A stretch of DNA of 64,000 nucleotides from Escherichia phage BP9. Shown here piece after piece: positions 15,719 to 35,813 of the stretch; the first letter of the stretch is position 1; the number at the start of each line of letters is the position of its first letter. Location: the sequence record PP488543.1; one strand, 5' to 3'. Both the position numbers and the translations under genes were made by a program. The notes beneath the pieces were generated by a model. It saw only the letters and a list, made by a program, of their open reading frames with translations, did no database searches and was not told where the DNA came from.

Positions 15719-16099
15719 ATGGAGCTTAAAGATTGGTGCATAATCACCTTTGTGTGGGACATTGACGGCTTTCCTGATCAAACCATGCGTGTTGTTTTAG
15801 ACAACGAAACGTATGAAATGCGTATGCAATGGAATGAGAGGGATGAGTCTTGGTGGTTATCTCTTGGTCCAGTAGGTGACAGCCCTTTAGTAACCAGAAA
15901 AGTAACAGCTTGTCAAGATATCTTAGACGGACTGCATTATAGAGACGATTTACCGAAAGGTAGATTGATGGCACTGTCGTTTAAAGATGATCAATATTGG
16001 GGCAGGGTTGGAAGATACAACCTTGGAGCAAGATCCGAGCTACAACTTGTATACGGCACTCCAGTTGATCTTTACAAGGAACAGCAAGGGTTAGAATAA
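15719..16099 (+). CDS. hypothetical baseplate protein
   Basis: 126 aa; SD GGGGAG; TAATG coupling downstream. Confidence 0.35.
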   Translation: MELKDWCIITFVWDIDGFPDQTMRVVLDNETYEMRMQWNERDESWWLSLGPVGDSPLVTRKVTACQDILDGLHYRDDLPKGRLMALSFKDDQYWGRVGRYNLGARSELQLVYGTPVDLYKEQQGLE

Positions 16100-17103
16100 T
16101 GGCAGAGTACAGACGTAGAACATGGCGATTATTGTTTGGTCGTCCTGTAGAACATGGCGGTAAATCAAAAACCAATATCCCAAAATCTGTTGAAAAGAAA
16201 GGGGAGAGTGATTCCGGAGTTTATGAAGTTAGCTCAGACACTGGTGCTGCCAATATAGAGTTTGACATACAAAAGGACAATACCAAAGAGCCAAACAAAG
16301 GTTATGTGACAGTTTACAACCTGTCCGACGATACAGTTAACTATCTGGATATGCATCAGGCTGATGCTCTTGCAGTTATGTTTGAAGCTGGCTATGATAA
16401 TGAGAACCAGTTGATATTCTCCGGAACTGTGGAGTTTGTTGAAGACAGATGGGAAGGTCCTACCAGAAAAACTAAGTTCATCTTTGGGGATGGCACTGAG
16501 AACATCATTAAGTGCCAAAGCACAAGATCTTATCAGAAAGGCACACCTCTGAACTCTGTGCTTAATGACTTACTGAAGGATATGAACTTGCCAAAAGGTA
16601 GGGTTGTTGGTTTTGGAAACCAGACTTTGCAATACTCTATGGCTTTCTCTGGAAACACTGCAGAGAACCTCCGCAGGTTTGCAAGGCTGACCAACTCAAC
16701 ATTTAGCGTTCAGGATGGGGCTTTGTATTGGACCAAGGTTGGAAAAAGGTTCAAAGACTCTGTGTTTGAAATAAGCGCAGAGTCTGGGATGCACGGATCT
16801 CCTACCCCTAAAAACCCAGAACCTGCTAAAAAACGAAAAGCTAAAGCTGCTGCCAAAGGTGGTTCGACATCTAAAAAGAAAAAGAAAAACCCGAGAGAGG
16901 ATGTTGGCCTTACTGTAACCACATGCCTTAACGGAGCTATCCTCCCAGAGTCCACTATTTATCTTAAAAGCAAGCAATATACAGGCTTCTATAAGGTGAT
17001 CACGGTGCATCATAAGGGCACCATAGAAGGTGGTGATTACACTACAGAGCTTGGCCTTGGGGAAACAGTGGGTGGAGTTGTTGACAAAACTGAGGAGGTA
17101 TAA
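16099..17103 (+). CDS. putative baseplate hub protein (XkdQ / gpD-like)
   Basis: 334 aa; position after tape measure; Lys-rich internal segment; resembles hub-type proteins. Confidence 0.4.
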   Translation: MAEYRRRTWRLLFGRPVEHGGKSKTNIPKSVEKKGESDSGVYEVSSDTGAANIEFDIQKDNTKEPNKGYVTVYNLSDDTVNYLDMHQADALAVMFEAGYDNENQLIFSGTVEFVEDRWEGPTRKTKFIFGDGTENIIKCQSTRSYQKGTPLNSVLNDLLKDMNLPKGRVVGFGNQTLQYSMAFSGNTAENLRRFARLTNSTFSVQDGALYWTKVGKRFKDSVFEISAESGMHGSPTPKNPEPAKKRKAKAAAKGGSTSKKKKKNPREDVGLTVTTCLNGAILPESTIYLKSKQYTGFYKVITVHHKGTIEGGDYTTELGLGETVGGVVDKTEEV

Positions 17104-17780
17104 TGGCAATAAATAGGAAAGATGCTGCTGTAAGATCCTTCATAGAAAAAATAATGAGGGACTACCACACCAGTATCAGGGCCAGAGTTGTCAGTGTAGA
17201 CTACAGTATCCCTTCTGCATCTGTGCAGCCAATAGCTGAAACCACGTTTGATGACGGAGATGTGGAGAGATACCCCCTTATCTATGACGTTCCAATTCAG
17301 GTGATGTCTGCAAACAGCGGAAAGGCAAGGTTAACACTTCCTATTAAGGCCGGAGATGTTGTAGGATTGCAGTTTTCAGAGAGGAATGAAAACAATAACG
17401 ACGATCAACAAACTCACGGCCTGTTTCCAGGGTGGGCAATCACCTCCGTTCATTCAGACTCAAACGCTTTACAGATCGATCCTGATAACGTAGAGTTATG
17501 GAATGATAGGGTTTATTTTAAACTGACACCTTCTGGCGATTTTGAGCTTCAGACACCGGGTGGAACATTACGGTGCGACAGCAGCGGGGAGTTTTCTTTC
17601 ACTAACGGTGCTGCCAATTTGCGAGCTGCTGTGGATGGAAATATCAGAATGAATGGTGCCACAATAGACCCATCTGGTAGAATTATAACTGCTGCTGGCG
17701 TGGATTTGGATTCATTCTATGCAGAATATAAAGGTCATACCCACTCTTGCCCTGATGGCGAGACAAGTGGACCGCACTAA
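17103..17780 (+). CDS. putative baseplate central spike (gpV-like)
   Basis: 225 aa; C-terminal GHTHSCPDGETSGPH His/Cys motif typical of spike tips. Confidence 0.4.
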   Translation: MAINRKDAAVRSFIEKIMRDYHTSIRARVVSVDYSIPSASVQPIAETTFDDGDVERYPLIYDVPIQVMSANSGKARLTLPIKAGDVVGLQFSERNENNNDDQQTHGLFPGWAITSVHSDSNALQIDPDNVELWNDRVYFKLTPSGDFELQTPGGTLRCDSSGEFSFTNGAANLRAAVDGNIRMNGATIDPSGRIITAAGVDLDSFYAEYKGHTHSCPDGETSGPH

Positions 17781-17792
17781 TAGAGGGCTTTC

Positions 17793-18509
17793 ATGGCTAC
17801 GCTTTATAGTGATATATTGATGGACCCACAGACAGGCGATTTGGCGATAGACAAAGGTCTTGAGTTGATAGATTCAAACCAGGTAAGTCTGCGCCAGCGC
17901 TTGTGGATGAGATTTAATACGTGGAAGGGGAGCTGGTACTTTGACGAGCTGTTTGGCTTCCCTTATATGGACTTTCTCAGCAAGAAGGTCATGAAGACTG
18001 TTCTTGATAACAAGATTATGGAAGTGGCAAGACAAGAGCCGGATGTGCTAAACATCATAAACTTCCAATCTACCATGGATAGAAGATCGAGAACATACCA
18101 AGCGTTCTTTGAGGTTGTTACCAAAGAGAACGAGATTGTAAGGCTGGCTTTTGTAGGTCTTGATCAGTTCACCTACCCACAGCCTGATTCTGGGACAACC
18201 TCCCTCTGTGATGATGAGGGTTGGATTAAGTGGGCTAATAAACTGTACTATCTGATCAACTTCAGATTGCCTAGAACCGGAGATGCCACATGGTGGAACC
18301 AGTATGCTGGTCCTGAGATGGAAAACCCGATCCCTGTAGGCTCTCTGTTGACTCAGGATAAAGATCTGCTGATGACTGAGGCAGAACAAACCATTAACCG
18401 CAATACCTGGACGCTTGCTCCAGATGAGCGCGAATACTCTGGTGTTATTGCTACCTCCAATGATGAGGCTATTGCCAACCAGTCTGGTCGTGCTATTGAT
18501 GTTAACTAA
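17793..18509 (+). CDS. putative baseplate wedge protein (gp25 / XkdS-like)
   Basis: 238 aa; N-terminal motif LRQRLWMRFNTWKGSWYFDELFGFPY resembles gp25/XkdS family. Confidence 0.4.
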   Translation: MATLYSDILMDPQTGDLAIDKGLELIDSNQVSLRQRLWMRFNTWKGSWYFDELFGFPYMDFLSKKVMKTVLDNKIMEVARQEPDVLNIINFQSTMDRRSRTYQAFFEVVTKENEIVRLAFVGLDQFTYPQPDSGTTSLCDDEGWIKWANKLYYLINFRLPRTGDATWWNQYAGPEMENPIPVGSLLTQDKDLLMTEAEQTINRNTWTLAPDEREYSGVIATSNDEAIANQSGRAIDVN

Positions 18510-21822: not shown

Positions 21823-24800
21823 ATGGCTGATATTAAAGTTGTCAGAATTGAATCTCTTCCTGCCACTACCGCAGTGACAGAGGATGATTACCTGGTTGTT
21901 CAACAACCAGACCTGACCCGTCGTGTAAAAATTGGCGATGTTGTCCATGTTGATGGGACTGTTTCTCATGTAATCTCCTTTAAGGAAGGTGGTAAGTTAA
22001 ACGGCCCAATGGATTTTGCCTACTTCGAAGAGGAAGACCTCTACCTGCGTTGGAAAGGCGAATTTCCGCACACTGTTCCTGCACTATCTTCACCGTACTC
22101 CGATGGCGGGATTACTGACGCTGCATGGATGGTATATACTGACCCGTCCTTAAGGGAGGAGCTGGAATCTACCATTGGCGCATCCATGATCATGACAGCC
22201 GAAGGGCAGTCTGTCCAGGATGTAATGGATGTTACTGTTCAGACAGCTAACGATGCCAAAGCACTTGCACAGCGTGTAGATTTTGGTACAGTGCACACTG
22301 TAGGCGATGTTATTCACCTTGATAACTTTGTTGGCCCTGCAGTTATTGAAGAGGGAAGAACTACCAACTACCCTTCTGTAGCAGCTGGTGAAAAATTTCT
22401 GAACGGTGTGGTATCTCGTCGTGATACTACAACTGTTGATGGTATTTTCCGTGGCGCTACCTCCGGAGCAATGTATACCATTGCAGTAACCAACGGTGTA
22501 GCAACAACAAAAAGAATAGCACTTCGTGATGAATTTAAACGCCTGGAGGCAAACAACCAAACAAGAACAATTATCCGTGCTGGAGATGATTTAAACACGG
22601 CAGGGTACTTGCAGCTTGATGCAACAGGCCGTTGGGGTATGTGGAACCAACAAACAGCTTCTTGGCAGCCTCTTGCTATAGAGCAGGGCGGCACAGGGGC
22701 TAGAGATGCCGCTGGAATCCGTACCAATATCGGTGCTTTCTATAAGCAACGTGCAGCCCTTGAGCCAAATTTCAATATCAATAACTTGACTGGTAATCAG
22801 GATGGTATATACTACCAGCCGATGACTGCTTATGCAACTGAGGCAAATGGTTATCCTGCAGGTTCTGGTGCTGGTCACTTGATTGTTTGGCAGAACAATG
22901 CTAACGGTGGTACAGGTTGTCGTCAGGAATACTATCCATTCTCCAACGTAGATGTTTGGTATTTGAGAACCTATCAGGCCAACACAAATCAGTGGACTGC
23001 ATGGCAGCCGATGGTCAGACCTCGTAACGATGATACCTTTAGAGCGCACATCGGTCTCGGGTCTAGAAACTCCCCTACCTTCGGGCACCTTTACCTGTCT
23101 CAAAGCTCTGCGGATGTTAAGTCAGCATCAGGTATTGTTAACGGAGACAAATACAACGCTGACGGTGTCCTTGAGCATGGGTATAGGATCTACTCTGAGG
23201 TAAGGAACGACAATAAGGCTTGGTTGACAATCCACCTGCACAAAGGTGCAAAAGGATCTGAAACTCATAGATATTTAGGCTTCCGTGAGGATGGGGTCTT
23301 AGATTGTCCTAAATATATGCAGGTTGGTGATCTGAACGGTCAGATGGCAAACTGGGGACTTGGAGAATGGATCCGCAGTTCAGGAGCAGAAAGAGGTTTC
23401 TGGGGATCTAAGAAAGCCGCCAAGATGGTCATCTGGGATGGCGGTATGGACGAGCAAGGTGAAGGAACGCTTGAGTGGGGTGTTTATAACAACCGGAAAG
23501 CCAAATGGGAACCACTACCGATAGCTTGTGGTGGTACCAGTGCCAGGACTGTAGGGGATGCTCAAGCACAATTCAGAATCCCTCTGGCAGCAGGTACTAG
23601 ACCATATGTAAACCTGCCTAGAACTGCAGCTATGCAGGACGGTAAGTATTATCCTATTATCGTCAGAACTGACCCCAACTTTGCAGCAACTATCGGGACA
23701 GATTTAACCATTGTCACCAGATCTTCTTCTGGCGGCGACCCAATGAACTGTGCTACACTACAGTGTCACTACAGAATTGGTGGCTGGACAGACAGAGGTG
23801 ATTCTTTCCAAGGGGTTATTAATTTCTACCAAAACGAGAAAGCAATCCTCGGATGTGTATCTCCAACCAGAGGTAAGCAGGAGTATGTTGCATTCTATGT
23901 AGAGGCACGTGCATTCCCTGTTACAGTATATGCTGGCGCTACTGTAATAGAAGTGTCAACCAGGGAGGTTGATTGGCAGGTAGGCAACGTGGAAGGTAAC
24001 CAAGATGGTGTCAAGTTCTGTGCTCCTCTGGCATCTGCAGATTTGAGTCTTGCAATCAAAGGTGATGATGTAACAAACACTAGACCTCTGGTTGAGTTCA
24101 AAGGGACATCAGGTTTCTACACTGGTGGTGGAACTATGTGGCACTACCTGGGAACTCCTGAACGCTATGCAGTGATGAGCAAAATGAACATGCCTAAAGT
24201 CGAGCTTTGGGCAGACGGTATTGACTACATTTGTCCTGGTAGTCAGACCACTAGAAAAGCACTGTTCTCTAACGCAGGGTTCCAAGCTGCATCGGAAGGA
24301 ACAGAGGATCTGATCAACAACACCTTTACCTCTAAATGTGGTAATGGTGCAAGACTACAAGGCCAGGCAGAGTTCAGATCTACTCCAGAGGCTGGTCAAG
24401 TTATTGTTCGTGATGTTGTAGGCACAGCTCATAGATTCTATAACTTCAACAAAGATGGCACTTTCTCAGCCCCTGGTGGTTTTGTATGTCATACTGGTGC
24501 AGACTGGAACAACCAGTTTGGGCCTAACAACCCTTCTAAAATAATGGCAGGCAATGTCAACGGACCTGAAGGATCGATGGTTGTTGGTGGGTTGTCTGTG
24601 GCGTTTTCTGGAAACTATGCCTTCCAAATGGCTGGTCGCCTTGATCAGTTATACACCAGATCTATCGAGGGTGGTAACCATAGGGCATGGAACAAAGTTA
24701 TTCAGCACCGTGGTCAAGGTCTGGGGACAGAAGACCTTAATGACTACGATGGTAGCCGTGAAGGTTTCTATCACCAGGGTTCAAACGCTGACGCACTTGT

Positions 24801-25635
24801 AATAGCTCGTCACTACCCTGCTCCGTACGCTGGTACGCTGCTTGTTTACAAAAACACAGCCAACAGACCGCAAGGTTGTGTGCAGGAATACATTACCTAT
24901 TTTGGTGACAGATATACTCGTGCTGGTAACTACGTTGGCGATGTCTTTACTTGGGAAGAATGGAGACACGATGCTGGTAAGGGCATTCAGTTAAGACCTA
25001 ATTACACTTTCGGTGAAAACAGTACTCAGCTGGAAATTCATGTTGGTGCTAATGGTCTTCCATCCAACGCCGATAACTTACCTACCAACAATGCTATACT
25101 CCATTATTGGGGTAACGGCAGTGCAGGGACTCGTCCAAACGTGTTAGAGTTTAAGGTTCTTGACGAGTCTCAATCGGCTTATGTATGGCATTGCGGTACC
25201 TTGCCGGATAAATCAAGATATCTTTCTGTAAACGGTGCTGTGAATTGCACATCTGTCAATCAGAGTTCTGACAGAGATCTGAAAGATAACATAGCTGTTA
25301 TTCCTGATGCGTTAGAAGCTATCCGGAAGATGAGGGGTTATACTTACACTCTTAAAGAGAACGGTATGCCTTATGCAGGTGTTATAGCACAAGAAGTTCT
25401 TGAAGCGCTGCCGGAAGCAGTTAGCTCTTTCGTGCAAAGAAAGGAAATCCCAAACCCTGATCAGGATGGAACTCCTTTAATAACAGAGGAAAGATTCTAC
25501 AGCGTGGATTACGCAGCTGTAACAGGCTTGCTTGTCCAGGTTTGCAGGGAACAGGATGATAAAATAACCGCCCTTGAGGAGCAGGTTAAAAAATTGACAG
25601 AGGTTGTTACTGGGTTGCAAGAGAAACTGAAGTAA
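21823..25635 (+). CDS. long tail fibre with C-terminal intramolecular chaperone (peptidase S74-like) domain
   Basis: 1270 aa; C-terminal SSDRDLKDNIAVIPDALEAIRKMRGYTYTL...AGVIAQEV...coiled coil matches auto-cleaving chaperone domain. Confidence 0.75.
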   Translation: MADIKVVRIESLPATTAVTEDDYLVVQQPDLTRRVKIGDVVHVDGTVSHVISFKEGGKLNGPMDFAYFEEEDLYLRWKGEFPHTVPALSSPYSDGGITDAAWMVYTDPSLREELESTIGASMIMTAEGQSVQDVMDVTVQTANDAKALAQRVDFGTVHTVGDVIHLDNFVGPAVIEEGRTTNYPSVAAGEKFLNGVVSRRDTTTVDGIFRGATSGAMYTIAVTNGVATTKRIALRDEFKRLEANNQTRTIIRAGDDLNTAGYLQLDATGRWGMWNQQTASWQPLAIEQGGTGARDAAGIRTNIGAFYKQRAALEPNFNINNLTGNQDGIYYQPMTAYATEANGYPAGSGAGHLIVWQNNANGGTGCRQEYYPFSNVDVWYLRTYQANTNQWTAWQPMVRPRNDDTFRAHIGLGSRNSPTFGHLYLSQSSADVKSASGIVNGDKYNADGVLEHGYRIYSEVRNDNKAWLTIHLHKGAKGSETHRYLGFREDGVLDCPKYMQVGDLNGQMANWGLGEWIRSSGAERGFWGSKKAAKMVIWDGGMDEQGEGTLEWGVYNNRKAKWEPLPIACGGTSARTVGDAQAQFRIPLAAGTRPYVNLPRTAAMQDGKYYPIIVRTDPNFAATIGTDLTIVTRSSSGGDPMNCATLQCHYRIGGWTDRGDSFQGVINFYQNEKAILGCVSPTRGKQEYVAFYVEARAFPVTVYAGATVIEVSTREVDWQVGNVEGNQDGVKFCAPLASADLSLAIKGDDVTNTRPLVEFKGTSGFYTGGGTMWHYLGTPERYAVMSKMNMPKVELWADGIDYICPGSQTTRKALFSNAGFQAASEGTEDLINNTFTSKCGNGARLQGQAEFRSTPEAGQVIVRDVVGTAHRFYNFNKDGTFSAPGGFVCHTGADWNNQFGPNNPSKIMAGNVNGPEGSMVVGGLSVAFSGNYAFQMAGRLDQLYTRSIEGGNHRAWNKVIQHRGQGLGTEDLNDYDGSREGFYHQGSNADALVIARHYPAPYAGTLLVYKNTANRPQGCVQEYITYFGDRYTRAGNYVGDVFTWEEWRHDAGKGIQLRPNYTFGENSTQLEIHVGANGLPSNADNLPTNNAILHYWGNGSAGTRPNVLEFKVLDESQSAYVWHCGTLPDKSRYLSVNGAVNCTSVNQSSDRDLKDNIAVIPDALEAIRKMRGYTYTLKENGMPYAGVIAQEVLEALPEAVSSFVQRKEIPNPDQDGTPLITEERFYSVDYAAVTGLLVQVCREQDDKITALEEQVKKLTEVVTGLQEKLK

Positions 25636-25734: not shown

Positions 25735-26325
25735 ATGTTTTTATGGGAAAGGCCTAGATACCTTCCAGATATTAGATTGGAGCTGCTGGCAGATATTGTT
25801 ACGTTTAAAAGTCCGTTTACAGGTAAAACGCAAAAAGTAACCTATGCCACACCTAACTGGAAAGGCACTTTGACGGTTTCCAATATCAGCGAGTCACAGT
25901 TGCTAGAGCTTAAGAGCTTTGTTGATCAGGTGTATAAAGATGGAAACATCTTTCTTATTAAAACTTACGGTCACTCAGTAACAGCTAATGAGCCAATCGC
26001 CCTCGGGCCTACTGGTAACGATGATTTTTTGAGGACGGTTGGGTGGGAGCCAAACAGAGACATAGCCAGAGCTGGGGATAAAATATCTGTCAATGATGAA
26101 TTGAAAGTGGTAACAGCTCCAGTGCGTAGCGATGGTGTTGGGTCTGCTGTTATAAGCATATCTCCAAGACTTAGAAAACCTATTGCCGCAGGGGACACTA
26201 TGAAGATAATAACTCAATCCCCGAAGGGTAGGTTTCATATCAGAGATATTTATAAAATTAAGCAAAAAGTCGATGCTATGCAAAAAGGGGATAATATAGT
26301 TATCAACTTCTTTGAGGATTTCTAA
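25735..26325 (+). CDS. putative distal tail protein (lambda gpM-like)
   Basis: 196 aa; segment WKGTLTVSNISESQLLELKSFV resembles gpM; first gene of a lambda-like tip cluster ending in a J-like protein. Confidence 0.4.
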   Translation: MFLWERPRYLPDIRLELLADIVTFKSPFTGKTQKVTYATPNWKGTLTVSNISESQLLELKSFVDQVYKDGNIFLIKTYGHSVTANEPIALGPTGNDDFLRTVGWEPNRDIARAGDKISVNDELKVVTAPVRSDGVGSAVISISPRLRKPIAAGDTMKIITQSPKGRFHIRDIYKIKQKVDAMQKGDNIVINFFEDF

Positions 26326-26430
26326 GATGATCAGAGCGCCATTAGATAATTTATTTCTTGAAAGCTGGAGCTTGATGGTGTTGAGATCTTAATTGCTGCA
26401 AAGCTGGAGCTACCGACAGGAACTGTCAGG

Positions 26431-26877
26431 GTGTGCTCAGGCACTGGTGTTGTAGTAATTGAGGGGCAACATTTTATAGGGATAGGTGGGTCAGCAACAT
26501 TAACCGCTGTGTCTGAGAAAGATGCCACCAACTTCGGATCTGTGGTAGCGACATTGAACGGGTTTGATCCTAAGTATGTGGGTGATCTGCTGAAGACGGA
26601 GTATTCTGGTTGTCGTGCCACGTTGTACATTACCGCTATGGAGAATGGTCTGCCTGTTACAACTAATGGCTTGTTTGACGGCCTTATAACAGATATGGCT
26701 ATTCAGACGGGTGAGAATAGCGCTTTGTCCATATCCATCTCTTCCATCTTCAACAGTTGGTTAAGAGGTTTTCCTTATCGGTACACGGAGGAAAGCCACA
26801 GCTCAAGAAACGATAACGACAGATTTTTTAAATATGTGGATCAGGTGGCGAGCCGCCCGATCATTTGGGAGGTTTAA
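26431..26877 (+). CDS. hypothetical minor tail protein (gpL-like position); 5' end uncertain
   Basis: GTG start 26431 with SD AGGA; frame is open upstream to 26362 and encodes a KLEL repeat. Confidence 0.35.
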   Translation: MCSGTGVVVIEGQHFIGIGGSATLTAVSEKDATNFGSVVATLNGFDPKYVGDLLKTEYSGCRATLYITAMENGLPVTTNGLFDGLITDMAIQTGENSALSISISSIFNSWLRGFPYRYTEESHSSRNDNDRFFKYVDQVASRPIIWEV

Positions 26878-27302
26878 TGAGCACACATCCTCGTCTAGTG
26901 GACTGGCAAGAAAGATTGTGGAAAGTGTTTGACGAAGAGGCCACCATACCTTTTGAATGGGGATTCCACGATTGTTGCACCTTTGCAGCTAAGTGTGTTG
27001 ATGCCCAATACGGAACAGATTTTCTTTCTAACTTCGAAGGAACGTATAAAACAGAGTTGGAAAGCAAAAGATGGTGCATGCTCCGTTTCAAAACCACACA
27101 CCTGCCTACTATTTTTGATCTCTTTATGACTCGGCTGGATACTCCTAAACAGGTTCAGCGTGGAGATATTGTCATTTTCGAAGGTCTGAACGGCCTCACC
27201 GCTGGTGTGTTCTGGAACAACCAGATTTGGGCGAAAGGTGATAAAGGGGTCTTTATGTTCGATATGAAAGATTCTATCGTTGTTGATGTCTGGAGGTATT
27301 AA
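26877..27302 (+). CDS. hypothetical tail assembly protein (gpK-like position), Cys/His motif HDCC
   Basis: ATG 26877 with SD GGGAGG, TAATG coupling (track start 26865). Confidence 0.35.
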   Translation: MSTHPRLVDWQERLWKVFDEEATIPFEWGFHDCCTFAAKCVDAQYGTDFLSNFEGTYKTELESKRWCMLRFKTTHLPTIFDLFMTRLDTPKQVQRGDIVIFEGLNGLTAGVFWNNQIWAKGDKGVFMFDMKDSIVVDVWRY

Positions 27303-30300
27303 TGCCAATTGCAATGATTGATAACATCGTTGCTTCTGCAAGATCTTCAAGTTATGACTGGAACGCATCCAAGGCAGCTCTGGCTGACAGCCTGAACACT
27401 GTTACCACCAGAACTCTGGATAAGATTTTTGAGGGTAACAAATCTTACAGAAGTCAGCAAGATAGACAAAAGCTTCTCAGATCTTCTGCTGCACCCTGCT
27501 CTGTAGTGTATGGAAAGACACGCACATCTGGATTGCTTGCGTTTTTGGAGCAGGATAGAGACAAAACCCTCCATTGTGCTATTGTTCTTGCCAATCACCC
27601 TCTGGAAGGTATAGAAGATATACTTATCGATGGTAATCCTATTTCCTCGTATGGAGATTTGGTATCGTGGGAGTTACATAACGACAGAAAAACGGCTGAT
27701 CCTTTCATGGGGACACACTGCCCATCGTGGTCACCAGACATGATAGGTAGAGGGATCAGTTGGCTACGTGCCAGCTTCAAGTTCGACCCTAACAAGTTTC
27801 CTTTTGGGTTGCCAAACGTTACACTCGTTAAGGTTGGTAAAAAATGCTATGATCCTCGTATCAGTAAAGAGGTGTACACCAATAACGCATCCTTGGTGAT
27901 CCTGGACTATTTAAGAACGTACCTTAAATGTCCTGACGAAACCATCAACTGGGAGTCCTTTAAGGAGGCTGCCAACATATGCGACGAGGCGGTAAAAAAC
28001 GCTGACGGAACCAGTGAGCGACGTTACACCATTAACGGTGAGTTTGACATGGATGAGGCCCCAGCAAGTATTATGGCAGAAATGCTGAAAGCTTGCGGTG
28101 CAGACCTTAGTTATGTTGCTGGTAAGTATGGTTTGCTGGTTGGTGCATACTATGGTCCGGCAACAATGACATTGAGTGAGGACTGTGTCTGTGGTGAGGT
28201 TAAGATCTATCCGGAAGCCTCATTTGACAAAAGATCTAACACAATAACTGGCAGATTCACTAGTCCGACCAAAGGGTATTCTGAAACAGATTTCCCATCA
28301 GTGTTTGTCCCAGAGTGGATAGAGAAGGATGGAGAAAGAAAGATAATCGATATAGACTATCGCTTTGTTACCAGTCCTTATCAAGCTCAACGTGTTTCTG
28401 CAATCTTCTTAAGACGTGCTAGAGCTGGCAGGATTATTGAAGTCACCTGCAATATGCGAGGTTTTAAATTTAAGCCTGGCCGTTACGTTACAATGAATCT
28501 CCCAAGTATTGGTATAGTAGGCCAAGAAATGAGGGTTCTTGAATGGGAGTTCACCAAAAAGGGTGGTGTCAAGGTAAAACTTCGTCAAGATGCTAAAGAG
28601 TGGAATGATGCCACAGGGCAACTTCCGGATTCTGGTGATGTAGATATTCCGATATCTCCATCTGGTGTAGCTCAACCGCAAAACTTCAGATACTCCGTCC
28701 TCCAAGCTGGGGAAATAACTCACGGTGTTCTGGCTTGGGACAACGTTGGGACTTACGCTCAAAATATTGTGCAGGTAAGAAAGAACGGAGAGATTGTTTG
28801 GACAGCACAGACAGTTGAGCAGTTTGTCCGAGTAGAAGGCTTGACCAAAGGGTCATACACAGCAACCGTGGTTGCAACATCTTATAAAGGTGGTGTATCT
28901 CCAGAAGCGTACTGCGAGTTTAACATTCAGGCACCTGAAGCTCCTGTTTCTGTAGAGGTTAAGCAGGGATACTTTGCTATCACCTTGATTCCACACAGCA
29001 GGGATTTAGCAAGTGTAAGCACCCAGTATGACTTTTGGACATCTGGTATGACAAGGTTGCCCGACACCAGCGATGCAACCGTTACTTCAAACGCCACCCG
29101 TATGGGTGTTGGTTCAACTTGGACATCCGAAGGTCTGCAGAACGATAAGGTTTATTATTGGTATATTCGAACCACAAACGCTTTTGGTAGCTCTCAGTTT
29201 GTAGAGTGTGCTGCACGCTGCTATACCTCCATTGAGGATTTGATGCCTCAGATAGATGCTGAATTCAAAAAGACAGAAACTTATAAAGAGTTGATGAGCA
29301 CTTTGGATTCCTCTATTGAAGAGGTTGAAAATCGTGTCACAGAACTTAACAGGTACATGGATGGTAGAGTTGACGAGGCTTTTGACCACATGGAAGGTGA
29401 GTTCTCTAGAGTAGACAAGCTGTATGCTCAGTTGGGAGATAGGGTTGGAATATTCATCCAAGAAACCCACGACAACTTCCAGGACGTTAATGGAACGCTT
29501 ACCACTCTAGATCAGAAACTGGTAGCCACTCAGAACAAGTTTGCAGATGATCTTTCTAAAGAAAGTGGCAAGCTTGCTTCTCTAATCCAGACCACTAACA
29601 AAGCTACAACCGATCTGTTAAATCAGAAAACTGAAGCTTTGGACGAGAAGATTGTTTCAACCAGGGGTGAGTTGGAAGATGCTTTAGCGCAGGAAAGCTC
29701 TGAGCTGAACTCCCTGATTGTATCAACCAATAAAACGACTACAGATCTCCTTAATCGGAAAACCGAGGCTTTAGACAATAAGCTGACGGCAACGAAAGGT
29801 GAGTTGACCAACAATCTGCAGAATGAGAGTGCTAAACTATCGTCCTTGATTGAGTCAACCAACAAATCCACCACTGATCTTCTTAATAAGAAAACAGAGG
29901 CGTTGGATGAAAAACTGGTTGCTGCACAGGGCGAGTTGACTGAGCAGATCGGAGATGTTGAAAAAGGCTATCTGGCTGGTGATAAGAGCCTAGAGGGCAA
30001 GTTGAATACTCAAAGATCTGAGTTGGATGCGAGCATTCTGAGCACTAACCAGGCCACTGTGGACTTGCTGAACAGAACTTCTGAGACTCTTGACCAGAAG
30101 ATTAGCCAGACCAACGCCACAGTGTCCAAAAACTACACCACGCTTGATGGTAAGATAAACACCGCCAAGTCTGATCTTAATACGTTGATTTCTACCACCA
30201 ACAAGGCCACAACTGACCTGTTGAATCAGAAAACGGCAGCTTTGACTGAGCAGTTAACCACTGCTAAAGGGCAGATTACAACCAACACCAATAATATTAC

Positions 30301-31447
30301 TGGGTTGGACAATAAGCTGACTCAGACGAAGAAAGACTTGTCTGCGAATATTTCTGAAACTAATAACGCCACTGTTGATCTGATTAACGGCACAGCGTCA
30401 GCTATTCGTCAAGAACTTGCTGTTGCTAAGCAGGAGATCATTGATGGTGTTGGCGATGTGTCCGAGATCAGGGCTGCAGTAGCTACAACAGCTAAGGCTG
30501 TGACCGACTTAGAGGGTAAAGTAAATGCTCAGTGGGGTACAAAAATACAGGTAGACTCCGCAGGGAATAAATATGTTGCAGGTATCCAGTTGGGGATGGA
30601 AGGGTCTGGGGGCCAAGTTCAATCCTACTTCATGGTTAGTGCAAACAATTTTGCGGTATACAATCCTGGCAATGGAACAGCAACCCTTGCTTTCGCAATC
30701 AAGAACAACCAAGCGTTCTTGAAAGACGCTTTTATAGAGAATGGCACGATCTCCTCTGCCAAGATCGCACAAGAAATTTCGTCAAACAACTACGATGGCA
30801 ACGGGTACCATAAATACGGTTGGTATATTAACAAGAACGGGCACGCCCAATTTATGGATGTGTGGGTGAAAGGCAACATCAACGCCAGTTCTGGTAACTT
30901 CACAGGGGCAGTTAACGCCACTAGTGGTACCTTCCGTGGGGATGTTTATGCCAATAATGGTAGCTTTAGAGGCACCATAGATGCAACCGGAGGTACCTTC
31001 CGTGGTCGTGTAGAAGCTTCTGTTATCCGTGCCAACCAGTTCGAAGGTGCAATTGTTGCACACAGGACTTACGGGGATTGTGCTCCAGTATATAACTCTC
31101 AGCAAAGGGTTTGCCGTTGGAGGTGGAGATACGTAGATAACGTTTCAGGTCAGGGTAAGAACGTAACATTCTTCTTTAAACTGAACGGTACTCTTGCCAG
31201 CTCCCAACTGAATGCATGGATAGCTGGTCATCAGATCCTTGCTGGCAAGAAGTATTTTAACGACAACAACGGCATGTGTGCGGTAGGGATAACAGGTCTG
31301 GGTGAACAAACTATAGACATTGTTATCGAGATTTACACACCGTGGTCAACGTCGAGCGTGACAGGTGTCACAATCTCCTGTCCCACTGTGATAGTAAGTC
31401 GTTCAAACTCTAGCTTCCAGGGACCTTGGAACGAGTCTCACGACTAA
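27302..31447 (+). CDS. central tail fibre / host specificity protein (lambda gpJ-like) with inserted coiled-coil repeats
   Basis: 1381 aa; FN3-like segment and YVAGIQLGMEGSGG...FMVSANNFAVYNPGNG region parallel lambda J; 5-6 tandem TNKxTTDLLNxKTEALDxKL repeats. Confidence 0.75.
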   Translation: MPIAMIDNIVASARSSSYDWNASKAALADSLNTVTTRTLDKIFEGNKSYRSQQDRQKLLRSSAAPCSVVYGKTRTSGLLAFLEQDRDKTLHCAIVLANHPLEGIEDILIDGNPISSYGDLVSWELHNDRKTADPFMGTHCPSWSPDMIGRGISWLRASFKFDPNKFPFGLPNVTLVKVGKKCYDPRISKEVYTNNASLVILDYLRTYLKCPDETINWESFKEAANICDEAVKNADGTSERRYTINGEFDMDEAPASIMAEMLKACGADLSYVAGKYGLLVGAYYGPATMTLSEDCVCGEVKIYPEASFDKRSNTITGRFTSPTKGYSETDFPSVFVPEWIEKDGERKIIDIDYRFVTSPYQAQRVSAIFLRRARAGRIIEVTCNMRGFKFKPGRYVTMNLPSIGIVGQEMRVLEWEFTKKGGVKVKLRQDAKEWNDATGQLPDSGDVDIPISPSGVAQPQNFRYSVLQAGEITHGVLAWDNVGTYAQNIVQVRKNGEIVWTAQTVEQFVRVEGLTKGSYTATVVATSYKGGVSPEAYCEFNIQAPEAPVSVEVKQGYFAITLIPHSRDLASVSTQYDFWTSGMTRLPDTSDATVTSNATRMGVGSTWTSEGLQNDKVYYWYIRTTNAFGSSQFVECAARCYTSIEDLMPQIDAEFKKTETYKELMSTLDSSIEEVENRVTELNRYMDGRVDEAFDHMEGEFSRVDKLYAQLGDRVGIFIQETHDNFQDVNGTLTTLDQKLVATQNKFADDLSKESGKLASLIQTTNKATTDLLNQKTEALDEKIVSTRGELEDALAQESSELNSLIVSTNKTTTDLLNRKTEALDNKLTATKGELTNNLQNESAKLSSLIESTNKSTTDLLNKKTEALDEKLVAAQGELTEQIGDVEKGYLAGDKSLEGKLNTQRSELDASILSTNQATVDLLNRTSETLDQKISQTNATVSKNYTTLDGKINTAKSDLNTLISTTNKATTDLLNQKTAALTEQLTTAKGQITTNTNNITGLDNKLTQTKKDLSANISETNNATVDLINGTASAIRQELAVAKQEIIDGVGDVSEIRAAVATTAKAVTDLEGKVNAQWGTKIQVDSAGNKYVAGIQLGMEGSGGQVQSYFMVSANNFAVYNPGNGTATLAFAIKNNQAFLKDAFIENGTISSAKIAQEISSNNYDGNGYHKYGWYINKNGHAQFMDVWVKGNINASSGNFTGAVNATSGTFRGDVYANNGSFRGTIDATGGTFRGRVEASVIRANQFEGAIVAHRTYGDCAPVYNSQQRVCRWRWRYVDNVSGQGKNVTFFFKLNGTLASSQLNAWIAGHQILAGKKYFNDNNGMCAVGITGLGEQTIDIVIEIYTPWSTSSVTGVTISCPTVIVSRSNSSFQGPWNESHD
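29560..30440 (+). repeat. in-frame tandem coiled-coil repeats (about 37-40 aa units) inside J-like gene
   Basis: Protein-level repeats with synonymous divergence at DNA level. Confidence 0.7.
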
Positions 31448-31552: not shown

Positions 31553-33043
31553 GTGGCTAAGTATGGATTGACAGAGGCTGGTTTCGTTATACCAACCCTA
31601 AATGACCTAATCGTTGAAACTAAGCAAAGCCTGATCCGTGCTTTTGGCGAAAACTTCAACGTACAGAGTAACTCCGTTGCAGATAAGCTGACCACTATCT
31701 TCAACGAGCGAGAGTATCAACTTATTCTTATGGCAGCATCTGTATACGCATCACAGACGCTGTATGGGGCAGAAGGTATTTACCTAGATGAGCTTCTTGG
31801 AAGACAGGGTATTTACCGAAGAGGCCGTTCTAAATCATCAGGTACCTGCCAGTTGACAATCAACACAACTGTGCCGTACAATATGATTTATGATTCCAAA
31901 ACTTATACGCTGGACAGTGGCAACTTTGTTCTTAGCAACGATGTGCAAGTAGCAGGGAATCTTATTGCTCACAGAATAAATGCTCCAGACCTAAGGATTG
32001 GGAAATACAACTTCCAAATTACCAACCAGACAGATGGAAGTATCAAAACAAAAAGCCTGGTTTTAACAGATAAGTCTCTGGACTCTTCTGATTTGCCAAG
32101 CTTTTACGGAGAGATTAAGCAATTCATTGTCGATAATACAACCCTGTTGAACGACGATTTGATTCAGATCGATATGTTGACAGGGACGTTGTGGATAGGG
32201 TACAATTCAAATCTTGATCAAGTTGGACTTAATAGCAGAGTAGATTTCAGAGTATCCCCGATTGTAGGGGAAAGAACTATCACACTGGATGTTATCGCTA
32301 ACGAGGCTGGTGAGCTGTCAAGAGAAGCAGAAACCGTGACAACAATGTCGCCTACTCCTAGTGGATTTATCAAGCTTACCAACCGAGAAAGATTCAATGA
32401 GGGCAGGGATGTTGAGAAAGACTCAGAGTATCGCTTAAGAGCTTCCAGCACAAAACAGTTAACATCGAAGGCTACCCGTCCTGCAATCCTTAGCGCTGTA
32501 AGCGAGGTAAAAGGTGTTGAGAAAGTGAGAGTGTTCTCCAACAACACCGATAAAACTGATGCTAAAGGTATACCTCCTTACAAGTTCCAAGTGGTTGTGT
32601 TTGGTGGTGCAACGGAGGACATTTGCCAAGCACTTTACCAAACTATAGCCTGTACGAACAGGACTTATGGTAATATTTTCTACGATATCACTACATCTGA
32701 CGGTCAAACTGAAAGAATTTATTACTCCAGGGCAAATACCTACCGCCTAGATGTAAGAATTACCTATTCCGGCGCTGCGCTTTCCACAACCGAAAAAGAT
32801 GCCATTGTAGAGGCTCTTTTGCAGGTTGTTAACGGACTTGATGTTGCAGATACGTTGTACAATATCCAATTGGTCGGTGCTGCATCCGCTGCTGTGTCGA
32901 TAGGTAGATTTAATAGACTGGTAATTCAAGTTAAACCAGTAGGAGCTTCTGATGAAGCTTACACGACAAACGATATTGTTGCGAACATGACCGAGGTGTT
33001 TGACCTCGACGAAAGTAATATAACTTTCCAACAAACTATTTAA
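31553..33043 (+). CDS. putative baseplate wedge protein (Baseplate_J-like)
   Basis: 496 aa; N-terminus MAKYGLTEAGFVIPTLNDL resembles baseplate J family; GTG start with SD GGAGG. Confidence 0.5.
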   Translation: MAKYGLTEAGFVIPTLNDLIVETKQSLIRAFGENFNVQSNSVADKLTTIFNEREYQLILMAASVYASQTLYGAEGIYLDELLGRQGIYRRGRSKSSGTCQLTINTTVPYNMIYDSKTYTLDSGNFVLSNDVQVAGNLIAHRINAPDLRIGKYNFQITNQTDGSIKTKSLVLTDKSLDSSDLPSFYGEIKQFIVDNTTLLNDDLIQIDMLTGTLWIGYNSNLDQVGLNSRVDFRVSPIVGERTITLDVIANEAGELSREAETVTTMSPTPSGFIKLTNRERFNEGRDVEKDSEYRLRASSTKQLTSKATRPAILSAVSEVKGVEKVRVFSNNTDKTDAKGIPPYKFQVVVFGGATEDICQALYQTIACTNRTYGNIFYDITTSDGQTERIYYSRANTYRLDVRITYSGAALSTTEKDAIVEALLQVVNGLDVADTLYNIQLVGAASAAVSIGRFNRLVIQVKPVGASDEAYTTNDIVANMTEVFDLDESNITFQQTI

Positions 33044-33054
33044 GGCGGCGAGAT

Positions 33055-33741
33055 ATGGCAGAGATTAAGTCGGATGTTAACCACATCCACACTCTGCCAG
33101 ATTTTGTTCAGGGAGGTCTTGACTACCTACCTGGAGATTTTCTGGCTGAGAAGGTTAATTTAGTCACATTCTTAACCGTATACCTTAAAAGGTTGGAGGA
33201 TGTTGATAAGATGCTGGTAGGTTTGGCTGAAGGAAGATTGCTTAACAATGCCAGCGGAAGATACCTTGACGAAGTTGGTAATCAATTTGGTATTCTTAGG
33301 AATGGACTTTCAGATGCTGATTTTCGTGCCACACTAATTATTCAGCAGGCCGCAGCATCAAGGGGCGGGACTCGCGAAGATGTCATCTCCACCTTGCGAC
33401 AATTGTTCGGAAGAGACAATTTCGATACGTGGAAAGGAGACAACTTCAGGTTTGACATAAATATTAGAAAAACTTGCTTTGACATATTGCAGTCTATCGA
33501 TCAGATCTTAGATATGCTACCATTGCCTTGTCATTTGCGTCTTACAGAATCGCAAGGGCAAGCTTTTGGTTTTGAAGGGGACTCTACAGCTCTTGGCTTC
33601 GGATCGGTGTGGGAAGAAAACCAATTCGGAGTTGGTGGGCTGGCTACTTTGCTGTATGTTCCTGACGTAAGACCTGATTGGGACACCACAACCATTTATT
33701 GTGAAAGTATTACAGTAAACGCAACTAGACAGGAGGGTTAA
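33055..33741 (+). CDS. hypothetical baseplate protein (gpI-like position)
   Basis: 228 aa following J-like baseplate gene. Confidence 0.3.
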   Translation: MAEIKSDVNHIHTLPDFVQGGLDYLPGDFLAEKVNLVTFLTVYLKRLEDVDKMLVGLAEGRLLNNASGRYLDEVGNQFGILRNGLSDADFRATLIIQQAAASRGGTREDVISTLRQLFGRDNFDTWKGDNFRFDINIRKTCFDILQSIDQILDMLPLPCHLRLTESQGQAFGFEGDSTALGFGSVWEENQFGVGGLATLLYVPDVRPDWDTTTIYCESITVNATRQEG

Positions 33742-35813
33742 TGGCAACAGCTGTTTTTAAACCTTACCGTGATTACTCTACAATGGCTGCACAGTTTCAT
33801 TACCGAACAGTTCAGGATACTGCCGTTCCTGGTAGGGATTATAATCATGTTGAGGGCGATGTAACTATCCCAATTGGGGCAACCAGTATTGAAATCCCAG
33901 TGGAAATTGTTGACAAATTACCCAACAGGTTACCAAGAAGCTTCTTTATGGAGTTTTCATCAAAATCTCAAGGGGTGATGATTGGGACACAAAGGGCAAA
34001 ATGTACAATAGTTTCAGATGAGAATCTTGACAGGATATCTTGGGATACTGTTGAGGAGAGAATGTTTCACCCAAGATATTGGGTTACAACCACCCAGCAG
34101 ACTGAAAGTACCTGTATTGTTGCAGATGACAACTGTTGTATTAACCGTTTAGTGTCAAGAACATATGGGGGTATGGCTGGGTGCATTTGGGAAACAGTTG
34201 ACAAGTATGACCATTTCGGTATTGGGTTTGATGATCACTATGAGATGAGAAATACCAAGCTTTGGTTCAGAATGTCAATAACCAATGCCAGCAACTTCTC
34301 CACTCCTGAAAAGATGATTATGACTGTAGACCTTGTTGATGGCACAATCATCTATGTTCCTTTAGCTCAATATGCTGTCAGCATCTCAGAGGATAAGAAT
34401 GTTGCAGAAATTCATATTGATTTTGAGGACTGCGTCGGGATGGACCAGAACAACAACATGATGGGTGTTGATCCTCGGCAGGTGAGAAGGATTTTAATAC
34501 CGCTCATGCCTAAAGACTGGGTAAGTAATAGCACAGACCCGAGAACGGAAAATGTAGAGTGCGAGTTGCGCTTAGACCTGCTTCAGCCAGACACAGGTTG
34601 GAAAATGATGCAACTTAACAATATTCAGGTTAAAGAGCACGACGTTGGGATCTGCACTGCATATGACGATATGTGGAACGTATCCCCTTTAAGGGTGTTG
34701 AACAATATCAAGCGTCTGGGCTATACCGGAACCATAAACCATTATGTTGGTATGAGTCATTATTATGACTACACGTGGTCAGGAACCCAATGGTCTATAA
34801 ACAGAACAGGGGCGCTAAACGCTGCAGCTTATAAATGGCATGATGATTTTATGTACAATGCCAAACGACATAACTTCGACGTTATGCAGTCTGTAAGTTT
34901 TGAGCTTTACAGCGATGCCTGCCCGTTGGAATGGACCCAAAGAGACTGGAACGATAACTACGCTAAAACAGGGTATACACCTTGTAGCTACCTCCTGTCT
35001 CCAACCATTGAAGAGGGTATGAATTTCCTTACTGCAGTATTTAAGAATTTTGCATCAGCCGCTATGAGAAACAACCTGCCAGTGATTATGCAGGTTGGTG
35101 AACCGTGGTGGTGGTACAATACCGATACTCGTAGACCTTGTATTTATGATTACCCTACAAAACAGGCGTTTTATGATGAGACAGGCGAGTATGCATTAGA
35201 TATTGGGACTATTGACGATCCTAAAACTGGCGGTGTTTACGATAAGTATGTAGCATTTTGTCGTGGTAAGCTTGGCGCTCGTATTGCGGCTATTTCAAAG
35301 GCAATAAAGGCACACGCTGCATCAGCTCAGATGACAGCTCTGCTGTTTTTCCCAACCATTATGGAAACCGAGCTTACGCAAAAGCTTAACCTTGCTGACC
35401 AATATAAAAAGGAAGCAGGTGCTCTTGATTTCTTCTGCACCGAGTGCTACGATTGGGTGATGCAGGGAGGTATTGAAAAGGCAAAAGAGTCTGTAAACAT
35501 ACCTATCGTTAAGTTAGGTTGGCAACCGTCTGAAATACAATACCTTGCAGGGTTCGTTCCTAGCAAAGAGCTTGCTCCGGTATATGGCTACGACCCAACC
35601 AGGAATTACCAAGAATTCTTATGGAGATGTATCTGCGGAAACATGGCAACTATAGAGTATAGATACCCTGAGGTAAAACAGTATGTGTGGGCATACCCGC
35701 AAGTAATGTCTGACAGCATTACTGTTACCGCTAGAGATTCTACCGTGCTTCATATGGGGCAGGTTGCTCTGAAAGGGTATGTAGAGGATGTTGTCCCGCC
35801 AGACTTCTCATAA
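33741..35813 (+). CDS. large baseplate/fibre-associated protein with N-terminal Calx-beta-like segment
   Basis: 690 aa; GRDYNHVEGDVTIPIGATSIEIPVEIVD resembles Calx-beta motif; Trp-rich C-terminal domain. Confidence 0.3.
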   Translation: MATAVFKPYRDYSTMAAQFHYRTVQDTAVPGRDYNHVEGDVTIPIGATSIEIPVEIVDKLPNRLPRSFFMEFSSKSQGVMIGTQRAKCTIVSDENLDRISWDTVEERMFHPRYWVTTTQQTESTCIVADDNCCINRLVSRTYGGMAGCIWETVDKYDHFGIGFDDHYEMRNTKLWFRMSITNASNFSTPEKMIMTVDLVDGTIIYVPLAQYAVSISEDKNVAEIHIDFEDCVGMDQNNNMMGVDPRQVRRILIPLMPKDWVSNSTDPRTENVECELRLDLLQPDTGWKMMQLNNIQVKEHDVGICTAYDDMWNVSPLRVLNNIKRLGYTGTINHYVGMSHYYDYTWSGTQWSINRTGALNAAAYKWHDDFMYNAKRHNFDVMQSVSFELYSDACPLEWTQRDWNDNYAKTGYTPCSYLLSPTIEEGMNFLTAVFKNFASAAMRNNLPVIMQVGEPWWWYNTDTRRPCIYDYPTKQAFYDETGEYALDIGTIDDPKTGGVYDKYVAFCRGKLGARIAAISKAIKAHAASAQMTALLFFPTIMETELTQKLNLADQYKKEAGALDFFCTECYDWVMQGGIEKAKESVNIPIVKLGWQPSEIQYLAGFVPSKELAPVYGYDPTRNYQEFLWRCICGNMATIEYRYPEVKQYVWAYPQVMSDSITVTARDSTVLHMGQVALKGYVEDVVPPDFS

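Follow-up and report, generated by a model that had tools for sequence, protein, structure and literature searches.

The gene examined here lies in a stretch of 64,000 nucleotides (nt) from Escherichia phage BP9 (sequence record PP488543.1), referred to below as the window, and encodes a J-like virion protein of 1381 amino acids (aa) in the open reading frame at 27302..31447 on the + strand. It is the long-stalk allele of rV5 gp37, a gene of Vequintavirus, the rV5-like contractile-tailed phages of E. coli. The equivalence to gp37 follows from gene order, and the rV5 numbering was confirmed by the annotation of PVP-SE1, which cross-references rV5 gp36 as wedge. We found that the protein carries a helical stalk with six copies of a 44-residue unit, that related phages differ in the number of these units, and that the variation between alleles is confined to the stalk. 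The parts of the gene product are as follows, with the repeat units designated R1 to R6:

27443..28711, + strand: N-terminal part resembling a hub (aa 48-470); its identity to the J-like tail tip protein of siphophage ChristophMerian is 55-59%
28778..29257, + strand: two immunoglobulin/fibronectin type III-like (Ig/FN3-like) domains (aa 493-652), from Pfam and from the alignment to lambda J 666-844
29255..30526, + strand: alpha-helical stalk of 424 aa (aa 652-1075), running from the motif DAEF to the motif AQWG
29567..29698, + strand: R1 (aa 756-799), 44 aa or four hendecads
29699..29830, + strand: R2 (aa 800-843), holding most of the 88 aa (aa 769-856) that are missing from the 1279-aa allele
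29831..29962, + strand: R3 (aa 844-887)
29975..29986, + strand: the only predicted helix break, AGDK (aa 892-895), within GYLAGDK, from the AlphaFold2 secondary structure
30017..30148, + strand: R4 (aa 906-949), a diverged copy
30170..30301, + strand: R5 (aa 957-1000)
30332..30463, + strand: R6 (aa 1011-1054), the most diverged copy
30476..30898, + strand: tail-tip fibre domain (aa 1059-1199), Phage_Tail_Tip PF09327, 133 bits against a cut-off of 22
30890..31021, + strand: second tandem repeat (aa ~1197-1240), four 11-aa units of the pattern xG.F.G.v.A, unrelated to the stalk repeats
31082..31444, + strand: C-terminal head (aa 1261-1381), 100% identical in the magaca and DrSchubert alleles

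A first-pass annotation of the window had described the protein, at exactly the same coordinates, as a lambda-J-like central fibre with an extra block inserted relative to lambda. The family assignment was borne out: a PHROG search returned phrog_31 ('central tail fiber J') with E=5.6e-160 over aa 143-1239, the Pfam domains Ig_J_second (PF24489, aa 547-652, 106 bits against a cut-off of 27) and PF09327 exceeded their cut-offs, and the matches in the PDB were lambda gpJ, T1 gp33 and the F2-pyocin fibre. Ig_J (PF24421, aa 493-545) stayed below its cut-off of 29 at 24.5 bits, and Pfam Phage-tail_3 matched the hub-like region with E=0.1 at best. The protein thus has the N-terminal hub-forming region, the Ig/FN3 domains and the tail-tip fibre domain of the J family. 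It is not a lambda J equivalog, as NCBIfam lambda_TipJ scored 147 bits against a curated cut-off of 1950.

In the alignment to lambda J, residues 497-678 of the query correspond to 666-844 and residues 1065-1218 to 850-991, and PF09327 can be aligned with lambda J 850-991 as well as with the T1 and F2-pyocin J proteins. The Ig/FN3 and tail-tip fibre domains therefore align with those of both lambda gpJ (PDB 8iyk and others) and T1 gp33 (PDB 9l9p), and the order of hub, Ig domains, helical linker and beta tip is that of lambda gpJ. (The phage of 9l9p, T1, is a siphophage and not a myophage.) The junction between the Ig and tail-tip parts, however, takes up about 386 residues in the 1381-aa protein and about 6 in lambda J, and the helical repeats lie at this junction, just as an extra block relative to lambda would require. 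The C-terminal heads of the two proteins are also unrelated, and the BP9 tail is contractile, with a hub and spike of its own.

The distal part of the protein gave little by comparison with known structures. The 11-aa units (SGNFTGAVNAT / SGTFRGDVYAN / NGSFRGTIDAT / GGTFRGRVEAS in translation) are invariant among alleles and were predicted as beta by AlphaFold2, with short strands at low confidence. The C-terminal model was all-beta, with a predicted local distance difference test score (pLDDT) of 56; a Foldseek search of the PDB with this model returned generic beta-sandwich matches with template modelling (TM) scores of about 0.3 and was uninformative. In a homologue search with the C-terminal 157 aa, only a V18 fragment was found outside these proteins.

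The repeats are clear at the protein level. We counted six copies of the motif [ST]N.[AST]T.DL[LI]N, at aa 765, 809, 853, 915, 966 and 1020, whereas shuffled stalk sequences would be expected to contain 5e-5. In an ungapped self-alignment, the best diagonal was at an offset of 44 aa with a score of 316, compared to a maximum of 59 in 100 shuffles, followed by diagonals at offsets of 88, 157, 106, 113, 51, 22 and 54; internal repetition in the stalk is thus well beyond chance. The spacing of the motifs, start to start, is 44, 44, 62, 51 and 54 aa, and the repeat block extends over aa 756-1054 (nt 29567-30463). The first-pass annotation had placed five to six repeats at about 29560-30440, which agrees with the motif count of six and with our block edges to within about 25 nt. 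Its unit length of 37-40 aa does not match the measured spacings, and corresponds roughly to the conserved core of the unit. A 22-aa sub-period within the 44-aa unit was also visible, as the offset of 22 scored 122.

At the DNA level the units have little in common. Tandem Repeats Finder, run on the gene, reported only a trivial 10-nt repeat, because the units are too diverged in DNA to be recognised. A gapless search recovered 5 copies with 60-80% nt identity over a 60-nt core, whole units share 41-62% of nucleotides and 30-61% of amino acids, and the longest exact run common to any two units is 12 nt. Synonymous sites are saturated between units (proportion of synonymous differences, pS, of 0.63-0.92), hence the duplications are old, as the first-pass annotation had supposed. 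It had further suggested that the DNA divergence is maintained by selection against recombinational collapse, and this idea we rejected. Among residues shared by R1-R3, the same codon was used at 32 of 80 positions, where 28.8 are expected from the codon usage of the phage (z=+0.8), and for all six units the count was 110 of 280 against 101.5 expected (z=+1.1). Since there is no shortage of shared codons, neutral saturation suffices to explain the divergence; collapsed alleles, described below, also exist.

The stalk is a long helix-forming sequence with a periodicity in the coiled-coil range. There is no proline among its 424 residues, and AlphaFold2, given the single sequence, predicted two helices, one of about 232 aa (~660-891) and one of about 187 aa (~896-1082), with a mean pLDDT of 67. 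Hydrophobicity has its power peak at 3.64 residues (27-30, against a 99th percentile of 9-10 in shuffles, for aa 645-1075 or the stalk), while the power at 3.50, the period of a heptad repeat, was 0.3-1.7 across all Vequintavirus alleles; the BP9 values there were 0.5 for the stalk and 0.7 for aa 645-1075. A period of 3.63-3.64 and the lack of proline were found in all five Vequintavirus alleles tested, including one that is only about 50% identical. When residues 740-883 are written in rows of 11, each row is headed by L or I. According to the literature (PMC4786415), 3.63 residues per turn correspond to a straight helix, 3.5 to heptads and 3.67 to hendecads. From the 11-residue register and the 3.64 period it follows that the 44-aa unit consists of four hendecads, and the longer spacings would fit hendecads plus one or more heptads. 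Judged from its sequence, the stalk period equals that of an unsupercoiled helix, as expected of a hendecad-type bundle and not of a canonical heptad coiled coil. Thus, of the coiled-coil character previously attributed to the repeats, the helical part stands, on the strength of the absent prolines, the prediction and the 3.64 period, and the canonical 3.5-residue heptad does not.

The motif itself lies within a hendecad (e.g., IVSTNKTTTDL at 29594-29626, and likewise at the other five sites), where T, N and T fall at positions expected to face the core and may give one polar layer per unit. Polar or ion-binding core layers occur in trimeric adhesin stalks. We also considered TNKATTDL as the beta-layer of an alpha/beta coiled coil (PMC4786415) and set this aside, because the 11-residue register crosses the motif without an insertion of 2 or 6 residues and AlphaFold2 is helical there.

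The number of units varies among related phages, as a comparison of alleles showed. With the stalk measured from the DAEF to the AQWG motif, the alleles are:

BP9 allele: 1381 aa, stalk of 424 aa, 6 units
common rV5/magaca allele: 1279 aa, stalk of 322 aa, 4 units
DrSchubert/FFH2/JES2013 type: 1199 aa, stalk of 242 aa, 3 units
O157 typing phage 14: 1174 aa, stalk of 217 aa, 2 units
siphophage ChristophMerian: stalk of 67 aa, 0 units

Altogether 116 phage records match the gene; about 12 have the long 6-unit stalk, about 60 have 4 units and about 44 have the divergent 3-unit form. The BP9 gene therefore represents the rarer allele of an otherwise conserved gene, which shares with rV5 gp37 and the other Vequintavirus orthologues its four-gene neighbourhood as well as an N-terminal 650 aa and a C-terminal 320 aa that are 92-100% identical. 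The tail fibre gene of Escherichia phage VB-EcoM-WM is 99.9% identical to it in nucleotides. Eighteen of the GenBank records, numbered MG0656xx and labelled 'Campylobacter phage' (e.g., L006 and A135), some of them UNVERIFIED, are Vequintavirus genomes with the gene 93-97% identical, so that their 'Campylobacter' host labels look doubtful. The A135 copy seems to be cut off after aa 1168, and this points to a frameshift in the A135 sequence as deposited.

The differences between alleles are of whole units in register, with the 88- and 105-aa junctions inside the motif. The 1279-aa allele lacks exactly 88 aa (2 x 44), plus 14 aa further upstream, and its unit 1 resembles R1 of the long allele in the first half and R3 in the second; by sequence, an in-register deletion in an ancestor that had more units explains it best. 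Typing phage 14 has the 4-unit allele minus another 105 aa, motif to motif, and at its junction units 4 and 6 are joined in register at a 13-nt identity, AAGCCACTGTGGA. Unit loss therefore occurs despite the diverged DNA. An assembly artefact is unlikely, because the units have so little sequence in common.

We then compared the parts of the BP9 protein with the magaca and DrSchubert alleles, respectively (amino acid identity):

hub: 99% and 98%
Ig domains: 100% and 96-99%
proximal stalk: 78% and 48%
repeat block: 83% and 50%
tail-tip domain: 99% and 92%
last 180 aa: 100% and 100%

More generally, the hub-like region (aa 48-470) is 98-99% identical across Vequintavirus alleles, the tail-tip fibre domain 92-99%, and the flanks of the stalk as a whole 92-100%. 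The rate of synonymous substitution (dS) in the flanks is 0.09-0.15 versus magaca and rises to as much as 0.48 for the DrSchubert allele, in its Ig and tail-tip segments. In the stalk, pS between alleles is 0.69-0.97, and the ratio of nonsynonymous to synonymous rates (dN/dS) is 0.06-0.19. A saturated stalk between near-identical flanks indicates that the stalk alleles are old lineages, held under purifying selection and recombined into the flanks. We rejected positive selection in the stalk on the same values of saturated dS and low dN/dS, and the alleles are not the product of recent adaptive change.

These data also bear on the idea that the repeats are neutral filler, i.e., that slippage in an indel-tolerant region produced them without any function of length and that the allelic diversity is hitch-hiking mosaicism. 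The gain and loss of units is evidently tolerated, and two other J-like proteins (P0123 and P0125, described below) carry unrelated helical repeats at the same position, which speaks for such an idea. Nevertheless, a stalk under purifying selection, which kept its 3.63-3.64 period and its freedom from proline in alleles only about 50% identical and retained its old duplications, makes this explanation highly improbable.

Searches with the stalk itself returned few relatives. Against 1.84 billion representative proteins, aa 740-1060 gave six matches with E<=1e-3, two of them strong and both from the same family. The weak matches P0123 (2158 aa) and P0125 (1162 aa) are other J-like proteins with tandem helical repeats of their own in the same position. 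Like RBPseg class TC9 ('elongated coiled coil'), they have helical repeats between FN3 and tip, whereas their repeat families are unrelated to ours and have the canonical 3.50 period. Repeat-driven expansion of the stalk thus recurs in J-like proteins, and the hendecad unit is specific to the genus. The unrelated library protein P0124 (482 aa) has 22-aa repeats, SNYTTLDTKIDNTKTELNTSIS, that resemble the stalk spacer SKNYTTLDGKINTAKSDLNTLIS, and its period is also 3.64. Membership in the Apolipoprotein A1/A4/E family (PF01442) was rejected at 32 bits against a gathering cut-off of 90, the common element being an 11/22-residue helical periodicity rather than homology; some GenBank records bear the label 'omp-alpha', which likewise reflects periodicity.

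Among solved structures, sequence similarity to the stalk was found only for the P22-type tail needle gp26 (PDB 4lin, chain 4lin_A), and the match is weak (about 160 aa, E=0.0026); gp26 serves as a tail plug or needle and is not J-like. It is a trimeric coiled-coil fibre, and 4LIN is an engineered, lengthened form of it. A Foldseek search of the PDB with the stalk model was uninformative, the best match having E=7. A further parallel is offered by the stalks of trimeric autotransporter adhesins, which are trimeric, have non-heptad periodicities and polar core layers, and vary in length by repeat number. We regard this as an analogy, with no sequence relationship claimed. The adhesin family is discussed in PMC4786415.

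Taken together, we consider it probable that the repeats form the core of a straight helical rod that serves as a length-setting spacer between the proximal hub and Ig part and the invariant distal tip and head. This rod would be long, stiff and essentially unsupercoiled, and most likely a parallel trimer, because the J-type domains on either side of it are trimeric and the weak match to the gp26 needle points the same way. It would connect the proximal hub and Ig part to a distal tip and head of beta structure. An alpha-helix rises by about 0.148 nm per residue; one 44-aa unit would then add about 6.5 nm, and this increment is the reason for regarding the stalk as a spacer that sets length. 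If fully extended, stalks with 6, 4, 3 and 2 units would measure about 63, 48, 36 and 32 nm, and the repeats would set the projection distance of the invariant head. Alleles may arise by rare in-register recombination at the TN.ATTDLLN motif, and whole stalk cassettes would also be exchanged between phages via the near-identical flanks.

Several points weigh against a length-setting rod. The allele length differences are not all multiples of 11 (102 = 88+14; 105; 80). The structure prediction is that of a monomer made without an alignment, with a predicted TM score (pTM) of 0.31 besides the mean pLDDT of 67 given above. Binding of the primary receptor, the NGR glycan, has been assigned to another fibre, and terminal binding of lipopolysaccharide to short fibres; cryo-electron microscopy of two Vequintavirus phages showed three fibres near the baseplate, and gp37 was not placed; and we found no experiment that links the stalk allele to host range. 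Finally, the break at aa 892-895 could let the stalk fold back.

In the last case the stalk would be an antiparallel bundle, a trimer of hairpins turning at AGDK, so that the repeats thicken it and the tip comes to lie near the Ig domains. A single AlphaFold2 break between helices of 232 and 187 aa, in a glycine-rich region (GYLAGDKSLEG), is what one would expect of such a hairpin. A hairpin needs matched arms, though, and the arms are very unequal among alleles (about 232+187, 130+187 and 130+82 aa), which counts against a conserved hairpin. The DrSchubert-type allele lacks the GYLAGDK segment altogether, and the hydrophobic period is uniform across the break. For these reasons we find the folded-back stalk improbable and retain the extended rod.

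The J-like gene is the fourth and last gene of a siphophage-type tip set that is located among fibre genes. The tail genes of the window relevant here are:

12381-14717: tape measure protein
16099-17103: baseplate hub, phrog_196
17103-17780: probable spike
17793-18509: gp25-like protein (sheath initiator)
21823-25635: adjacent fibre of 1270 aa, with the domains Tail_spike_N and, at the C-terminus, Peptidase_S74 (a chaperone domain)
25735..26325, + strand: Dit-position gene, 196 aa, phrog_1302 'distal tail protein', E=5e-50
26327..26877, + strand: gpL-position tail-tip gene, 183 aa in relatives, phrog_2048
26877..27302, + strand: DUF6950 gene, Pfam PF22262, E=2.7e-33
31553-33741: wedge proteins
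33741-35813: N4 gp65-like deacetylase fibre, 690 aa, with the Pfam 'non-contractile tail sheath' TIM-barrel and N-terminal domains and a Calx-beta domain

The adjacent 1270-aa fibre allowed us to examine a different role for the stalk, that of a docking scaffold along which other proteins of a branched fibre network bind, so that the stalk alleles mirror their binding partners. Vequintavirus fibres do form interconnected networks in which several fibre proteins are still unplaced, and a receptor-binding protein would not usually vary in its stalk alone and keep its distal head invariant, a pattern in keeping with a surface that binds partners. The 1270-aa fibre gene is itself strongly allelic; most records are 80-90% identical, and many matches are in two pieces or cover only 77%. 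Its alleles assort independently of those of the stalk. Long stalks pair with fibre alleles that are 99.9%, 91.9%, 87.6% and 85.9% identical to that of BP9, and BP9-like fibre alleles pair also with short (EI-SP-GF) and DrSchubert-type (Murica) stalks. No co-variation was apparent in this coarse test with one partner gene. Moreover, a deposited phage genome sequence shows that whole units can be lost. It seems unlikely, then, that the stalk alleles follow docked partners, and the spacer remains the reading that we prefer.

The remaining tip genes have their counterparts in ChristophMerian (Queuovirinae), where four homologues of similar sizes follow the tape measure gene immediately and in the same order. 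The Dit-position gene is 31% identical to the ChristophMerian gene directly after the tape measure gene, the gpL-position gene 37-38% to bas19_0017, the DUF6950 gene 47% to bas19_0018, and the J-like gene 55-57% to its own counterpart in the set. The J-like tip proteins of Queuovirinae (ChristophMerian bas19_0019, CAjan) are the closest relatives of the BP9 protein outside the genus, with 55-59% identity across aa 48-713 and 50-64% within the tail-tip domain; for the N-terminal region they are the best non-genus matches, and no match lies between 60% and 95% identity. The ChristophMerian protein differs in having 879 aa, a 67-aa stalk of heptad period 3.50 and no TN.ATTDLLN units, and its tip genes follow the tape measure gene directly in a phage with a non-contractile tail. 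None of the four tip genes was found in the tail regions of phi92 and PVP-SE1, where the hub and wedge genes matched as positive controls. We conclude from this absence that the tip set is specific to the genus within an otherwise shared myophage tail cluster. Sequence searches of the PDB with the Dit-position, gpL-position and DUF6950 proteins returned nothing, nor did Pfam and NCBIfam at permissive thresholds for the first two.

The gpL-position gene of BP9 has a 1-nt deletion in an A-run at about nt 26360 (TTGAAAAGC -> TTGAAAGC), and the reading frame is shifted once about 11 codons have been read. Intact copies of the gene are present in magaca, RudolfGeigy, DrSchubert, VB-EcoM-WM and YN3; the deletion is a sequencing error in the homopolymer or else a private mutation.

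The presence of all four siphophage tip genes, homologous to the set after the ChristophMerian tape measure gene, together with the 55-59% identity between the N-terminal 470 aa and a siphophage's genuine tip protein, raises the question of whether gp37 could be a true central fibre on the tail axis, as in lambda. The BP9 tail, however, has its own phrog_196 hub, probable spike and gp25-like initiator near the tape measure gene, as in phi92, in whose solved baseplate the homologous hub and spike are on the tail axis (PMC13450770). The tip set is not in the siphophage position; it sits with the fibre genes, some 12.6 kb downstream of the tape measure gene. Furthermore, in micrographs of rV5 the thin fibres are about 70 nm long and number five to six (PMC3606486), not one. 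An axial position is therefore very unlikely, and the label 'central fibre' given in the first-pass annotation is doubtful. We infer instead that gp37 sits at the baseplate periphery, off the tail axis. A stalk of 48 nm together with the Ig domains and the tip would agree with a fibre of about 70 nm. We found no published map or solved Vequintavirus structure that places gp37, and a gp37-type protein is not in the structure papers on phi92 and phiTE. The N4 gp65-like fibre is the one that binds NGR glycan in Vequintavirus according to a 2026 preprint, with phi92 gp142 as its counterpart.

Parts of this picture have been published before. Kropinski et al. (PMC3606486) described rV5 gp37 as a protein of 1279 aa assigned to COG4733, found it in virions by mass spectrometry and reported an HHpred match to a gp27-like hub. 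Strong allelic variation among its orthologues was noted in the BASEL study (PMC8594841), where they are annotated as 'lateral tail fiber protein with fibronectin type III domain'. In RBPseg (PMC12143355), structural class TC5 includes a Vequintavirinae fibre, presumably the gp37 orthologue, with 'large coiled-coil domains', a central-fibre-like N-terminal part and, at the C-terminus, a beta-helix. The gene, its virion location in a broad sense, the coiled-coil domain and the allelic variation are therefore already known. In the literature that could be searched, we found no description of the 44-aa/hendecad structure, of the whole-unit polymorphism or of the confinement of variation to the stalk. 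What is new here is the 44-residue hendecad unit, the allelic series of whole units, the restriction of the variation to an old stalk cassette, the rejection of selection against recombination and the finding that a myophage carries a tip gene set of siphophage type.

As to the origin of the locus, we tentatively propose a wider scenario, which we hold to be possible but doubtful in its entirety. The siphophage tip set may have been captured by an ancestor of this contractile-tailed genus, its closest relatives being those of Queuovirinae coliphages, and redeployed off-axis as an accessory fibre. A short heptad linker would then have become a 5- to 6-fold longer straight hendecad rod, old cassettes of 2 to 6 units would have been kept with an invariant head, and the variable trait would be reach or geometry and not the receptor-binding surface.

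If this scenario is true, Vequintavirus would show an unusual axis of host-range adaptation and possess a natural set of length-graded fibres. Independently of it, the siphophage tip set in a myophage, absent from phi92 and PVP-SE1, is a clear instance of structural genes captured by a phage of another tail type. For rV5-like phages, the anatomy described here is a testable one for one of the fibres that lack an assignment, and the alleles with 6, 4, 3 and 2 units between identical ends provide a ready series for studying reach versus adsorption through O-antigen or capsule. A straight rod of 44-residue blocks with a period of 3.63 may also be a possible modular spacer for engineered fibres.

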